Source: Candidatus Saccharimonadia bacterium
GTDB taxonomy: Bacteria; Patescibacteriota; Saccharimonadia; Saccharimonadales; Saccharimonadaceae
Assembly: GCA_023260255.1 (NCBI GenBank)
Contig: JALQVV010000079.1
Span: 1-48,479, forward strand
Direction of reading: 5' to 3'
Length of the DNA: 48,479 bases
A program made the position numbers and the translations under genes. Every line of letters starts with the position of its first letter. Position 1 is the first letter of the stretch. The notes beneath the pieces were generated by a model. The model was not told where the DNA came from and searched no databases. It was given only the letters and a program-made list of their open reading frames with translations. Below are positions 13,512 through 20,033 of this stretch, in pieces.

Positions 13512-14354
13512 GTGAGATTATCGCGGACTATTCTTAGCCTGGTGGCTATCGTAGTGGCTACTGTTGCTTTGGCGTCTCCTCTGTCTGCCGCCAATTACGG
13601 AGGTGGAAGCGTGCAGGGCTATGCTGCTGACGCTCCACTTGATAATGGCACTATTGTGCAGCTGACTGGCAAAGATAGTAACCGTGTCAAAATCGCGACC
13701 CAGTCTGATCTACAAAATATGTTTGGGGTGACAGTCGATCGCAGTCAGCTGTCGGTAACACTATCGAACGAAGGGCTCGAAAACGAAGTGTTTGTGGCGG
13801 TATCGGGCACATACAATGTATTGGTGAGCACACAGGGCGGCACTATTGAAGCGGGTGATTATGTAACGCTTTCGTCGGTCAATGGTATCGCAATGAAAGC
13901 AGGCACCGAAGAAAAAACGGTATTTGGCCGTGCTGCGAAGTCGTTCGATGGCAAAGGTGTGACATTGGGCACCACTACCCTTAAAGATACAAATGGCAAA
14001 ACGAATCAAACGGTCAAGCTGGGGTTGATCCCGGTCACTATTGATATACGACGTAACCCCAACACGATCAGTACAACCGCCAATCTGCCAGACATATTAC
14101 AACGTGTGGGGCAGGCTATCGCTGAAAAGGAAGTTAGCCCAATCCGTATCTATCTGAGCCTCGCGATCACTGCTGTCAGTTTGGTTGCGGCTATTGCAGT
14201 CCTATATTCCGGTATCCGTAGCGGAGTAATATCGATCGGTCGTAACCCAATGTCTAAAAAGTCCATTTTCCGCGCACTTCTCGAAGTAATCTTAACGAGT
14301 GTGCTTATTTTAATTATCGGCCTATTTGCGGTATATTTACTACTGAGGTTATAA
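13512..14354 (+). CDS. Exported protein with a C-terminal two-helix membrane hairpin; first gene of the F1 ATPase operon (function unknown)
   Basis: 280-aa ORF with signal peptide LSLVAIVVATVALASPLSA and a ~190-aa soluble domain. The C-terminus is LSLAITAVSLVAAIAVLYSGIRSGVISIGRNPMSKKSIFRALLEVILTSVLILIIGLFAVYLLL. It ends 28 nt before the next gene. Confidence 0.75.
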   Translation: MRLSRTILSLVAIVVATVALASPLSAANYGGGSVQGYAADAPLDNGTIVQLTGKDSNRVKIATQSDLQNMFGVTVDRSQLSVTLSNEGLENEVFVAVSGTYNVLVSTQGGTIEAGDYVTLSSVNGIAMKAGTEEKTVFGRAAKSFDGKGVTLGTTTLKDTNGKTNQTVKLGLIPVTIDIRRNPNTISTTANLPDILQRVGQAIAEKEVSPIRIYLSLAITAVSLVAAIAVLYSGIRSGVISIGRNPMSKKSIFRALLEVILTSVLILIIGLFAVYLLLRL

Positions 14355-14382
14355 CGCGCAGAATAGGTGGGCTCAAACGAAC

Positions 14383-15147
14383 ATGGGATTGTTTCAACAC
14401 AAAAATCAGTCGCAGCAAAAATCGCCGAGCGATCAGGCGGCCGATGCTGCTATGCGTTTGTTTGACGATGATTTTCGTGAAGAGCTGCGTACCCAAGGCA
14501 AGTTGTATTTTGAACGAGTGATCAACGAAAACGCGGCGCTGTTCAAACAGGATCTGGATGCAACTGTCGCCCACATTAATACTGAACTACGCCAACACGT
14601 TGCCCGACAACTCGATGAACAATTTGCCGAGATCACCCGGACCAATACCGAACTTCGTCAACATGTCACCAACCAACTCGATGAGCAGTTTGATGAATAT
14701 AGCAAGACGATGCAACAGGCGCAAGAACTTGCCCTGCAGGCACTGAATCGCAGTGCACAAGCACTCGAGGATCAGCACAAACAACTCAGTGTCTCGTTGG
14801 AAAAAAGCATTGCTCACCAAGATGCCATGCTGACGGGCGCAGTCGAGGAAACCCAGGCGCATTTGGCCGAGATGAAAGATGCTCAGTCGGCAGCGCTTGA
14901 ATCATTGAATCGTAGCGTTCAAGCATTACAAGAACAGCATCAGCAACTCAGCGCACTATTGGAGAAAACAGTCACCGATCAGCAGGCACGGCTGGTTGAT
15001 GCATTTGAACAAAATATGGGCCGAATCATCGAGCATTATTTGCTTGGTGCACTCGGTGATCAGTACGATCTCAAAGCACAGTTACCATCGATCATCAAAC
15101 AAATGGAAGCCAACAAACAGGCGATTGTGGATGATATGAAACTATGA
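14383..15147 (+). CDS. Coiled-coil protein with internal repeats and no TM segment; occupies the position of the peripheral-stalk b subunit
   Basis: 254-aa ORF, Q/E/L-rich with heptad-like sequence. Its stop overlaps the next start (ATGA at 15144-15147). Confidence 0.75.
   Translation: MGLFQHKNQSQQKSPSDQAADAAMRLFDDDFREELRTQGKLYFERVINENAALFKQDLDATVAHINTELRQHVARQLDEQFAEITRTNTELRQHVTNQLDEQFDEYSKTMQQAQELALQALNRSAQALEDQHKQLSVSLEKSIAHQDAMLTGAVEETQAHLAEMKDAQSAALESLNRSVQALQEQHQQLSALLEKTVTDQQARLVDAFEQNMGRIIEHYLLGALGDQYDLKAQLPSIIKQMEANKQAIVDDMKL
14578..14709 (+). repeat. Tandem 66-nt (22-codon) repeat inside the coiled-coil gene
   Basis: NTELRQHVARQLDEQFAE and NTELRQHVTNQLDEQFDE. A second, longer duplicated unit (LNRS.QAL.(E/D)QH.QLS..LEK.(I/V)...) follows at about 14740-15010. 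Confidence 0.8.
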
Positions 15148-17410: not shown

Positions 17411-18277
17411 ATGAGACGACCGTTAGAGATCAGGGCGCAAGAAAACGCAGTACGATCTGTTGTGAGTCTTACATCAGCATTGGAAAGTCTCAGCAGTATG
17501 CAGATTGCCAAGACTAAAAATAAAGTGTTGATCAGTAATCAATTCTTTGATGAAGTCTGGAGTATCTACAAACAAATTCGCGTTGATGCCCTGTTTAATT
17601 TTGGCCGTCAGGTTGATGAAAAGCCAATCGACAAAGAACTGCTGATCCTTATCACGGCCAAAGGTGGGTTATCTGGTGACATTGACCAACGTCTGATCCG
17701 CAAATTTATCGAACGTTACGATCAGGCTAAAAATGATGTGCTGGTCATCGGTCACCACGGCGCGCTCAAGCTCAAACAATCACATATTGACTATACATAC
17801 TACTTCGACTTGCCCGAAAAGGACTATATCAACCTGGATCCGCTGATGGATATTACCAAAAAATACACCCGCAGTCGTATTTTCTACCAAGACTACATTT
17901 CGCTTTCGCAGCAAGAAATCAAAGATGTTGATCTGAGTGAAGTGGTATCGAGTAAGGGGCGTATTGCGGACATGTCGAGTGTTGGCGATGATCTGGTAAG
18001 TGAAAAGAATTATATTTTCGAGCCAAGTTCATATGCAGTGGCGGCGTATCTGGAAAATTCAATTCTGCGCCTGACGCTTGCACAGTTCATTTATGATAGT
18101 CGTCTAGCGCAGGTTGCGAGTCGGTTCAAGGCCATGTCTGCGGCCAAAGAGCGCTCGGTCGATACCGCGACACAACTCCATACCGAATATAACCGCGCCA
18201 AACGTAACCAAGTCGATACACGCCTGAAGGAATCGTTGGCGGGGCTCAAAAAGATCCGTGCAGAAGGGGCAGCATGA
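17411..18277 (+). CDS. atpG: F1 ATP synthase gamma subunit
   Basis: It sits between alpha and beta. I chose the ATG at 17411, which has GGAGG 8 nt upstream, over the TTG at 17384. The N- and C-terminal helices are gamma-like (...[30 protein letters not shown]). Confidence 0.75.
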
Positions 18278-19719
18278 TGAGTGATTCTGAACAAACAGTC
18301 TACAAGAAAGGTATCGTCCGTAGTCTGAAGGGGCTTGTCATCAAAATACAGTTTGACGAAGACATGCCTGACATCAACGAGATGCTCTATGTCGACAATG
18401 AAAAAAAATCACCGCTACTAGTTAGTAGCCTGTCGCATGGTGACACGGCGGTGTGTTTGAACATCGGTGGCGATTATAGTATCCAAAAAGGCGACAAGGT
18501 TACCCGCAGCGGACACAGCTTGGAAATCCCTGTTGGTGAAGCCATGATCGGTCGGGTATGGGATGCCATGGCGCGACCAATCGACGGCAAACCACAGCTG
18601 GACGAGGCAACCCTTGCTAAGATGCCGAAACGCCCAATATTCTCGCCTGCCTATCAGGAGACAAGCCTGGTCAATCGTCCAGACGACGTGTTGGAAACAG
18701 GGCTGAAAGTCCTCGACTTTTTCACACCATTCGTCAAAGGCCGCAAGATTGGTATTGTCGGTGGTGCCGGTGTGGGCAAAACGGTCCTCACGATGGAAAT
18801 CATCAATAACGTCGCCGAAGGCTCGGGCGCAATCAGTATGTTTGCCGGTATTGGAGAGCGTATTCGTGAAGGACACGAGCTGTACAAGACGTTGGGTGAT
18901 AATGACCTGCTCAAAACTACAGCCATGTTCTTTGGCCAGATGAATGAAAATCCCGTGCAGCGTTCACTGATTGGTCTGGCTGCTATCACATTGGCCGAAT
19001 ATTTTCGTGATGATTTGAAAAAAGACGTGCTGCTGTTTGCTGACAATATGTATCGCTATATTCAGGCAAAAAACGAAGTTTCAACCATCATCGATCAGAC
19101 GCCAGCGGAAGGCGGCTACCAGCCAACGGTGTTTAGCGATGTAAAGACATTTCAGGACCGCTTAGCAACAAATGAAAACGGGTCGATTACTGCTCTGCAA
19201 ACGATTTATGTCCCAGCTGACGACTTGTCGGATCCAGCTGTGCAGATGATCCAACACGAACTGGACAGCACGATCGTCCTTAGCCGTGCAGTGGCTGCGC
19301 AGGGTATTCGCCCGGCGGTTGATATTTTGGCGTCCAAATCGAGCCTGCTGACACCAGAAGTTGTGGGTGAGCGGCACTATGATTTAGCGACTCGTGCAAC
19401 AGCGATCTTACAAAAATACGAATCGCTCAAAGGCATCATTGCCATTATTGGTGAGTCTGAACTTTCGGCCGAAGACCGCGATGATTACAATAAAGCCAAG
19501 CAGCTGATCGAGTTTTTCAAGCAACGTTTTAACGTCATGGAAAAGGTGACTGGTGTACCGGGTGAACATATGACTCGTGACCAAACGCTTGACGGTGTCG
19601 AAGCAATTATTGGTAAAGCAGATCTGAAGGACCAGCCAACTGAGGCCGCGCCTGCGGCACAGCCAGCAGCGCAACAACCTGCATCCGCACCTACACCAGC
19701 TGAAGAAAAGGCACAATAA
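18274..19719 (+). CDS. atpD: F1 ATP synthase beta subunit with an A/P/Q-rich C-terminal tail
   Basis: Beta motifs include [36 protein letters not shown] and ESELSAEDR. The start overlaps the gamma stop (ATGA). Confidence 0.92.
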
Positions 19720-20033
19720 TGGCCGACGAAACCCCAACGCCAGCAGTTACCGAATCCGAACAGCCGGCCAATACGCATGATGGCAAACCAATCATGGAGG
19801 TAAAAGTCTATGCGCCGTTCCAGGTGTATTTCGAAGGGAGCGCCTACAGTGTGAGCGCGGTCAATGACACGGGGCCATTTGATATTTTGCCTCGTCACCA
19901 TAATTTCCTTTGTATGCTAGTACCCTGTAACTTGGTTGTGAAACCTGTTGAAGGTGATTCAAAAATCATCAAGGTTCATCGCGCACTTATGCACGTCAAG
20001 GCTGACCGTGTCGTGGTGTTTATGGATGTCTAA
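19719..20033 (+). CDS. atpC: F1 ATP synthase epsilon subunit, short form (beta-sandwich only)
   Basis: 104 aa, with its start overlapping the beta stop (TAATG). It is epsilon-like (VYAPFQVYFEGSAYSVSAVNDTGPFDILPRHHNF...) but has no C-terminal helical hairpin and carries a ~25-aa N-terminal extension. Confidence 0.75.
   Translation: MADETPTPAVTESEQPANTHDGKPIMEVKVYAPFQVYFEGSAYSVSAVNDTGPFDILPRHHNFLCMLVPCNLVVKPVEGDSKIIKVHRALMHVKADRVVVFMDV

Follow-up and report, generated by a model that had tools for sequence, protein, structure and literature searches.

What might an F-type ATPase do when its operon holds subunit genes in the canonical order and the gene for subunit a is missing? The question is raised by a seven-gene operon on the plus strand (positions 13512-20033) of contig JALQVV010000079.1, a stretch of 48,479 nucleotides (nt) from the Candidatus Saccharimonadia assembly GCA_023260255.1, which was analysed over its whole length and is called the window below. 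An initial annotation, made from the letters of the DNA, had described an F1-only ATP synthase operon headed by two non-canonical genes in the place of the membrane subunits a, c and b, and had left two explanations side by side: either the membrane sector Fo is encoded elsewhere and the two leading genes specify stalk or accessory subunits, or an F1-like engine is coupled to a different membrane partner. Our sequence comparisons and structural models point, with moderate confidence, to an atp operon that has lost subunit a alone and has kept c and b as very divergent homologues. We predict with high confidence that the operon encodes a separate, functional, channel-less F-type ATPase; a rotary mechanism directed at the cell surface is proposed with lower confidence.

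The order of the operon is (c-like)-(b-like)-delta-alpha-gamma-beta-epsilon, and its seven plus-strand open reading frames (ORFs) are closely packed, with spacings of +28, -4, -8, +106, -4 and -1 nt. The first gene, g1 (13512-14354), opens with GTG, encodes 280 amino acids (aa) and is separated by 28 nt from g2 (14383-15147; 254 aa), which overlaps g3 (15144-15662; 172 aa) by 4 nt, while g3 in turn overlaps the alpha gene (15655-17304; 549 aa) by 8 nt. After a gap of 106 nt, the gamma gene (17411-18277) encodes 288 aa from the ATG at 17411; it overlaps the beta gene (18274-19719) by 4 nt, and beta overlaps the epsilon gene (19719-20033), which encodes the beta-sandwich only, by 1 nt. The packing described in the initial annotation was thus confirmed to the base by the ORF coordinates, and its naming of genes 3-7 as delta-like, alpha, gamma, beta and epsilon was borne out by Pfam and NCBIfam. 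The gamma start is preceded by a GGAGG ribosome-binding site (17398-17402), the mechanically called ORF opening at TTG 17384, and a GGGAG ribosome-binding site (13495-13499, plus strand) stands ahead of the GTG of g1. In the 200-nt divergent intergenic region upstream, direct reading gives a weakly supported extended -10-like element on the plus strand, TGCTATAAT (13461-13469), which a consensus promoter scan of this region did not list.

The absence of canonical a, c and membrane-anchored b genes from the window, also part of the initial annotation, held in the HMM and Pfam searches. A hidden Markov model (HMM) of nine c subunits and E. coli b were compared with 493 six-frame ORFs of at least 45 aa from the window, and nothing was found below E=0.97. 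Subunit a (ATP-synt_A) was found neither in the window nor in about 95 related loci with 10-kb flanks. What did not stand is the description of the operon as F1-only with two non-canonical leading genes: g1 is c-like and g2 is b-like, and the operon is therefore not strictly F1-only, subunit a being the one true absence.

The catalytic head appears competent for ATP hydrolysis because its catalytic motifs and arginine finger are invariant and the inhibitory helices of epsilon are missing. In beta, the Walker A motif GGAGVGKT, the catalytic GERIREG, the Walker B Asp and the adenine-pocket YVPADD are invariant across 57 homologues, and in alpha the arginine finger (SVTRVGG) is invariant across 66. 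The unusual P-loop of alpha noted earlier, GDSKVGKT, is present and belongs to a family form GD[SG]KVGKT; the low-complexity tail of alpha, rich in K, E and A (approximately residues 480-549), and the A/P/Q-rich tail in which beta ends are likewise there. Alpha subunits in the PDB score 250-309 bits. Gamma matches Pfam ATP-synt at 1e-26, and its orthologues have 288 aa. Epsilon is, as earlier described, a beta-sandwich with an N-terminal extension: ATP-synt_DE_N covers residues 26-103 of 104, after an extension of 25 aa, and the protein, whose orthologues range from 78 to 114 aa, ends without the C-terminal inhibitory helical domain. All five subunits fall below the corresponding NCBIfam cutoffs, namely alpha (atpA; 363/379 bits, cutoffs 484/554), beta (atpD; 428 bits, cutoff 463), gamma (TIGR01146; 82 bits, cutoff 194), delta (27 bits, cutoff 57.5) and epsilon (26 bits, cutoff 67). 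An exact look-up of the beta of the window returned no record.

In a scan that took a single genome for each species, g1 had a relative in 126 species, and the best 80 of these loci were analysed together with four metagenomic loci. The same seven genes occur in the same order in all 80 species-level and four metagenomic loci wherever the contig is long enough, g1 and g2 adjoining the delta-alpha-gamma-beta-epsilon genes, which answers affirmatively the question of synteny posed in the initial annotation. Over the 80 loci, beta shares 78-93% identity with its counterpart in the window, alpha 66-92%, gamma 62-90%, g1 58-81%, epsilon 57-83%, g3 40-66% and g2 29-70%. The rate of non-synonymous substitution (dN) is 0.07-0.45 and synonymous sites are saturated, so that the ratio of dN to the synonymous rate (dN/dS) is mostly uncomputable; the invariant order in 80 loci together with low dN argues that the operon is not a chance arrangement. 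In the protein collection, g1 has approximately 1,700-1,900 relatives, and all named organisms among the matches listed are Candidatus Saccharibacteria/Saccharimonadia. Three complete genomes are among these loci, CP011211 (L014), CP023991 and CP075337, the last belonging to the cultured strain TM7i (L072).

We call the subtype of the window type A. A second Saccharibacteria subtype, type B (loci L085 and L087-L090), was reached through the best full-length beta-like representative outside the group of the window; it has the same seven genes, and its beta is 45-55% identical to that of the window. Three further low-GC contigs (L092-L094; type C) carry the same seven-gene architecture without subunit a. 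As the matches to types A and B have no contig-length fingerprint in common, the two look like alternative versions present in different lineages. A neighbour-joining tree of beta, which has no support values and includes no canonical Saccharibacteria or Omnitrophota references, places types A and B as sisters, apart from the clade with the G1-beta of Mycoplasma mobile (P0175). Together with the conservation within type A, this wider occurrence indicates that the operon is functional and old. Of the phylogenetic placement suggested in the initial annotation, the separation from M. mobile is thereby obtained, in a tree that lacks canonical Saccharibacteria. The best-scoring beta representative (P0121) is a stand-alone gene and uninformative. 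On a contig of 7.9 kb (L091), which has no other F-type genes, a stand-alone 648-aa beta-like ATPase (5567-7513), 45% identical to the beta of the window, adjoins glucose-6-phosphate dehydrogenase.

The gene g1 occupies the atpE position. Topology prediction agreed with the initial annotation that its product is exported and has a C-terminal membrane hairpin, and that g2 has no transmembrane helix. The g1 protein consists of a signal peptide (residues 1-26), a beta ectodomain (approximately 34-181), a helix (194-204) and two hairpin helices (210-244 and 249-279), and is predicted to share the topology of subunit c, with both termini outside and the loop inside. AlphaFold2 (AF2) with a shallow alignment gave a mean predicted local distance difference test (pLDDT) score of 54, which rose to 82.7 when the second g1 subfamily was added (95-sequence alignment). 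In Foldseek comparisons, about 70 residues of the hairpin in this model fit c subunits from cow and Chloroflexus with a deviation of 1.8-2.0 A and a probability of 0.91-0.97. The ectodomain matches phage capsid decoration/cement proteins (E=2e-4 in the PDB, E=3e-10 in BFVD), the C-terminal barrel of the phi29 appendage is also among its best structural matches, and a weak Pfam match of g1 to Phage_cement_2 agrees with this fold.

The cytoplasmic loop of g1 provides the link in sequence. The motif SIGRNP[LM], including GRNP, is invariant in types A, B and C, and the type C loops VEGIGRNPLA and IEALGRNPLA are close to the c-subunit motif VEGIARQPEA. In c-rings, the R(Q/N)P loop touches gamma and epsilon. 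Comparison by hhalign of the joint g1 alignment (types A, B and C) with c subunits gave P=4e-4, with RNP placed on RQP, while reversed controls gave 0.5-0.7; with type A g1 alone the value was P=0.04, so that this support appeared once types B and C had been added. An HMM search of the PDB with the full-length type A g1 profile gave a spurious match at E=2.6 alone. The conserved membrane-embedded Asp/Glu expected of a c subunit is not found in the g1 homologues. The residue aligned to E. coli cD61 is V, I or L, and E258, the sole acidic residue nearby, varies as E, Q, G, T or A across g1 relatives; g1 is therefore best read as a c-type hairpin unable to carry ions. Sequence and model together suggest, with moderate confidence, that g1 is a c-subunit-like protein which lacks the membrane carboxylate and has gained an exported domain. 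To our knowledge, a c-type subunit with an ectodomain has had no earlier description.

At the atpF position stands g2, which is translationally coupled to the delta-like g3. The N-terminal 60 aa and the C-terminal 50 aa of g2 are conserved, and the middle is variable, repetitive and coiled-coil. The best PDB match of the g2 family profile is an ATP synthase subunit b (E=7.5e-4), followed by several other b subunits. In types B and C, the g2 homologues start with an N-terminal transmembrane helix, continue as a long coiled coil and share the conserved C-terminal segment; a b-like protein with a membrane helix is present in all of L085, L087-L090 and L092-L094. The hydrophobic helix is absent from 78 of the 79 type A g2 proteins. 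It may therefore be proposed, with moderate confidence and from these sequence comparisons, that g2 is a homologue of subunit b whose membrane helix was lost in the lineage of the window. The gene g3 matches Pfam OSCP at 23.4 bits (cutoff 22.3) over residues 87-157, in the C-terminal part only, and its N-terminal 85 aa are unrecognisable as delta/OSCP. Weak or faint OSCP matches occur at the g3 position in L001, L087, L092, L093 and L094. As separate observations on g2, the only type A protein with a hydrophobic N-terminus is that of L082; the internal coiled-coil repeats are accompanied by lengths that range between 178 and 305 aa across the type A genomes (L005-L084), and such a variable stalk length is odd for a peripheral stalk of fixed geometry.

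Whether the operon replaces or accompanies an ordinary ATP synthase can be judged from related genomes. In Southlakia epibionticum one PF00006 pair was found, within an ordinary atpZBEFHAGDC operon (SEML1_0349-0358; atpZ, a, c, b, delta, alpha, gamma, beta, epsilon); this oral-type species, having a single alpha/beta pair, therefore lacks an operon of the g1-g2 type. In the canonical Saccharibacteria operon gamma scores 3.5e-82 in Pfam, compared with 1e-26 in the window. According to Table S5 of PMC12592800, CP011211 (the same as GWC2_44_17) has one copy each of a, b and c and two copies each of alpha, beta and gamma; the counts are the same for Ca. Saccharimonas aalborgensis and the cultured Ca. 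Mycosynbacter amalyticus, each subunit is single-copy in TM7x and RAAC3, and several bins of the order CAILAD01 have alpha, beta and gamma and lack a, b and c. Another compilation (Mahendrarajah 2023) gives GCA_001790445 one c, two alpha, two beta, two gamma, one delta, two epsilon, one a and one b. Neither source, as far as its accessible text goes, comments on the duplicated counts. Since CP011211 carries the operon and is reported with one a/b/c set and two alpha/beta/gamma sets, the operon represents a second system and not a split F1Fo. The same counts make its presence in Mycosynbacter amalyticus and Saccharimonas aalborgensis probable too. The operon is found in the cultured TM7i, and probably in these two organisms as well, and it is therefore open to experiment.

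The surroundings of the operon are rich in genes for exported proteins. Divergently from g1, on the minus strand, a linked neighbour (9793-13311) encodes a 1172-aa exported protein with a CBM_4_9 domain. A homologue lies upstream of g1 in 73 loci; the ends of the protein (approximately 230 aa at the N-terminus and 200 aa at the C-terminus) are conserved around a variable middle, and judging from the sequence the layout is that of a surface protein which is attached by its conserved ends and exposes the variable part. Another gene in the same direction (3964-9720, minus strand) encodes a 1918-aa Kelch-repeat surface protein recognised by Pfam; it is a variable neighbour, present in only 4 type A loci. 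In type B, a 1732-aa Kelch protein follows epsilon in L090, and the L085 operon is preceded by a 1013-aa repeat protein with faint Pfam matches (NHL and related). The operon of L092, one of the three low-GC contigs, adjoins a 5046-aa ORF. Convergent with epsilon, a minus-strand gene (20030-21052) encodes a 340-aa protein that joins an acidic N-tail in the cytoplasm, through a single transmembrane helix, to a bactofilin-like beta-helix outside the cell; it occurs in 53 type A loci and also beside the type B operons of L088 and L090. Behind it, on the plus strand, stands a block of four genes (21135-26114), conserved beside the operon, whose exported or wall-anchored products have 246, 613, 365 and 359 aa; the 359-aa protein has a C-terminal transmembrane helix as well as a WxLIP peptidoglycan-binding domain. 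Several proteins of the longer stretch 20030-29590 are conserved beside type A and some type B operons, including L088 and L090. Pilus genes were found beside the operon neither in the window nor in the examined loci, apart from one pilin-like gene 8 kb off in L002.

Other features of the window were noted in passing. The exported or wall-anchored run spans 20030-29590 in all, with products of 340, 246, 613, 365, 359, 311 (PKD), 411 and 364 aa, two of which have WxLIP domains and C-terminal anchors. Beyond it lies a tRNA-Asn gene (29635-29709), followed to about 35000 by a stretch of low GC content (approximately 40-43%, compared with about 49%) that contains an AAA_21/AbiEii-like ATPase (30753-31991, minus strand) and its 168-aa partner. 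A KwaB-like (Kiwa) protein is encoded at 41541-42554. The regions 29635-35000 and 41541-42554 are probably a defence or mobile island. A heliorhodopsin gene (PF18761, E=2e-96; 39629-40393, plus strand) is preceded by a gene for an unassigned 237-aa polytopic protein (38121-38834, plus strand), and these are the two polytopic proteins that the window encodes. Both products were considered as a hidden subunit a and rejected, as they have no ATP-synt_A match and are unlinked to the operon in relatives.

From this gene set, we consider it fairly probable that the operon encodes a channel-less second F-type ATPase which would hydrolyse ATP and couple this reaction to the cell exterior, neither making ATP nor pumping ions. 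In such a complex, the alpha3beta3 head, the gamma/epsilon rotor and a peripheral stalk of the delta-like and b-like proteins would be kept. Hydrolysis driven by beta would turn gamma/epsilon or put it under torque, and the torque would be handed to a membrane oligomer of g1 hairpins, which keep the cytoplasmic R-N-P loop. The g1 ectodomains, a beta domain of about 180 residues on the outer face of the membrane, could then deliver mechanical work to a surface structure, for which the conserved exported neighbours and the giant adhesin-like proteins would be the best candidate load. The gene content and its conservation, the intact catalytic motifs, the lack of subunit a and of the carboxylate, the topology and folds of g1 and the presence of a canonical ATP synthase in related genomes are what has been shown; that g1 forms a ring, that anything in fact rotates and what the load outside the cell would be are the steps that we infer. 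The idea of an F1-like engine with a different membrane partner thus stands in outline, as a channel-less enzyme among exported neighbours, and differs from the initial proposal in that the partners are derived from c and b. A more specific version, in which g1 forms a c-ring-like rotor with an external decoration-like crown that is spun by ATP, with no ion flow, and with which Saccharibacteria and other ultra-small bacteria would move or tension giant adhesins when attaching to hosts or moving on them, is put forward tentatively and is rather doubtful. If true, such a crown rotor would be an undescribed prokaryotic surface motor, evolved from an ATP synthase independently of the Mycoplasma gliding motor.

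Several observations weigh against this account. Pfam found no ATP-synt_C in the isolated type A hairpin, an HMM search of the PDB with the type A hairpin profile gave no match, and the hhalign probability for g1 against c subunits is 35%. The PDB matches of g2 include coiled-coil noise, apolipoproteins among them. Sequence support for both the c-like and the b-like assignment is thus modest, long helical hairpins and coiled coils matching generically. The fold predicted for the g1 ectodomain is typical of trimers and may misfit the geometry of a c-ring, and the b-like stalk of type A would have no membrane anchor to resist torque. Co-existence with a canonical operon is taken from published gene counts of related genomes, not from the genome of the window. 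Surface-protein neighbours are not universal, as the operon of L087 sits among housekeeping genes. Finally, the putative complex is described here from sequences and predicted structures.

Other explanations were weighed as well, among them a split canonical ATP synthase, with the sole F1 encoded here, Fo elsewhere, and g1 and g2 as lineage-specific accessory subunits. It is generally known that atp loci are split in some bacteria, the order delta-alpha-gamma-beta-epsilon is canonical, and the evidence used here comes from related genomes and not from the rest of the genome to which the window belongs. However, canonical Saccharibacteria operons have their own alpha, gamma, beta and epsilon with far stronger Pfam scores, CP011211, which carries this operon, reportedly has alpha, beta and gamma in duplicate next to a single a/b/c set, some bins have alpha, beta and gamma and no a, b or c at all, all subunits are under the equivalog cutoffs, and the c position is already filled by the carboxylate-free g1. 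We therefore regard a split synthase as very improbable, and the first alternative of the initial annotation, with Fo elsewhere and g1 and g2 as stalk or accessory subunits of a normal ATP synthase, is opposed by the Southlakia operon and the CP011211 counts. Still less credible, to the point of being negligible, is a decaying and functionless paralogue of the atp operon: scores under the family cutoffs and low-complexity tails would suit decay, but the seven ORFs are intact in more than 80 species, the catalytic motifs are invariant, and dN is low compared with the saturated synonymous divergence.

An ion-motive ATPase or synthase could also be assembled with an unrecognised channel, formed by an unrelated membrane protein or by the canonical subunit a acting in trans, so that a ring of g1 would carry ions. 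In its favour, all other parts of F1Fo are kept, including a membrane-anchored b in most subtypes; hairpin helix 2 of type A often has a polar E or Q close to its cytoplasmic end, and the heliorhodopsin and the polytopic protein are encoded about 18 kb from the operon. Yet no polytopic membrane protein is conserved in or beside the operon across types A, B and C, a hydrophobic residue stands where a c subunit has its carboxylate and E258 gives way to Q, G, T or A, the CAILAD01 bins with alpha, beta and gamma have no subunit a, and epsilon lacks the regulatory domain typical of synthases, which together make a hidden channel quite unlikely. Somewhat less remote, while still unlikely, is a non-rotary ATPase resembling FliI/FliJ, which would energise the secretion, folding or anchoring of the neighbouring proteins and use g1 as a membrane dock. 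In F1, alpha and beta are homologous to FliI/SctN, which are the next-best family matches, many exported proteins flank the operon, and the type 3 ATPase of Mycoplasma is needed for a surface protein system. Export-gate homologues are absent, however, and the neighbours begin with ordinary signal or anchor helices of a kind that Sec can handle; the heterohexamer, gamma, epsilon, delta and b that have been kept amount to a full rotary set, needless for a simple unfoldase, and the operon of L087 has no exported neighbours.

If the preferred reading, a channel-less ATPase coupled to the cell exterior, is correct, it would add a second, independently evolved case of an ATP synthase turned into a motor to that of the Mycoplasma gliding and MIB-MIP ATPases. 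[quoted passage not shown] There is also a practical consequence for metabolic reconstructions, since those which count "F-type ATPase" genes in CPR bacteria may mistake this operon for an ATP synthase; for the CAILAD01 bins with only this set, chemiosmotic ATP synthesis would be wrongly implied. In a literature search, the term "F1-like" was not found paired with Patescibacteria or CPR, and no description was found of the composition of the operon, the loss of subunit a, the c-like subunit with an ectodomain, the anchor-less b-like subunits or the surface-protein neighbourhood. The existence of an odd beta in Saccharimonadia is something that was glimpsed before, as Seymour 2023 (PMC10066038) indicates, and the membrane part appears to be without precedent.

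Among known systems, canonical F1Fo (atpIBEFHAGDC) shares with the operon the gene order, running from a c homologue through b, delta, alpha, gamma and beta to epsilon, the catalytic residues of beta, the arginine finger of alpha and the R(Q/N)P hairpin loop. It differs in having subunit a, the ion-binding carboxylate and a complete epsilon, whereas in the window epsilon is truncated, the c-like subunit has a signal peptide and an external domain, and the b-like subunit is without a membrane helix. N-ATPase (atpDCQRBEFAG) is likewise an additional F-type operon, which some bacteria have beside their canonical one; it keeps a, b and c (with a Na+ motif), has AtpQ and AtpR and follows another gene order, and its models score 400 (cutoff 752) for beta and 307 (cutoff 750) for alpha. 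The FliI/SctN models reach 169-220 bits against cutoffs of 380-620, and these enzymes are homohexamers of a single ATPase, in contrast to the two paralogous subunits of the window.

A closer relative may be the non-respiratory "symbiotic" F-ATPase of Omnitrophota, whose beta, according to its description, clusters with Ca. Saccharimonadia sequences (Seymour 2023, PMC10066038); on the strength of this clustering, it and the operon of the window probably belong to the same broad clade. Both occur in ultra-small and putatively host-dependent bacteria. The Omnitrophota genes are reported there to adjoin type IVa pilus genes (PMC10066038), which are not found beside the operon of the window, and a later paper cites that ATPase as having a predicted function in attachment or motility. 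The accessible part of PMC10066038 describes no subunit composition, no c-like protein with an ectodomain and no loss of subunit a.

The closest analogues in function are the Mycoplasma type 2 (G1, gliding) and type 3 (F1-like X0, MIB-MIP) ATPases, which the literature calls mycoplasma-specific. These too are encoded by an extra seven-gene operon beside the canonical atp genes (Beven 2012, PMC3369863; PMC12994834; structure of M. mobile G1, PDB 9io5), with alpha-, beta-, gamma- and epsilon-like subunits that have intact catalytic sites and with no normal a, c or b; they are linked to large surface proteins, occur in host-attached bacteria with tiny genomes, and include a protein built like g1, in which a signal peptide and an ectodomain are followed by two transmembrane helices at the C-terminus. 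That protein has a mass of 85-127 kDa, compared with the 280 aa of g1, and shows no detectable sequence similarity to it, so the resemblance is one of analogy. The Mycoplasma order is 12TM-small-gamma-epsilon-SP/2TM-alpha-beta (SP, signal peptide; TM, transmembrane), unlike the canonical order in the window, and the delta-like and b-like proteins of the window are missing from Mycoplasma, whereas its 12-TM protein and small cytoplasmic protein are missing from the window. The MSC_0619/0618 and MMOB1660/1670 models also remain under their cutoffs (241 vs 520, 399 vs 570, 330 vs 600 and 365 vs 850). Because gene order, subunit set and model scores all differ, the operon falls outside the Mycoplasma type 2/3 families, and most likely an atp operon was recruited here independently.

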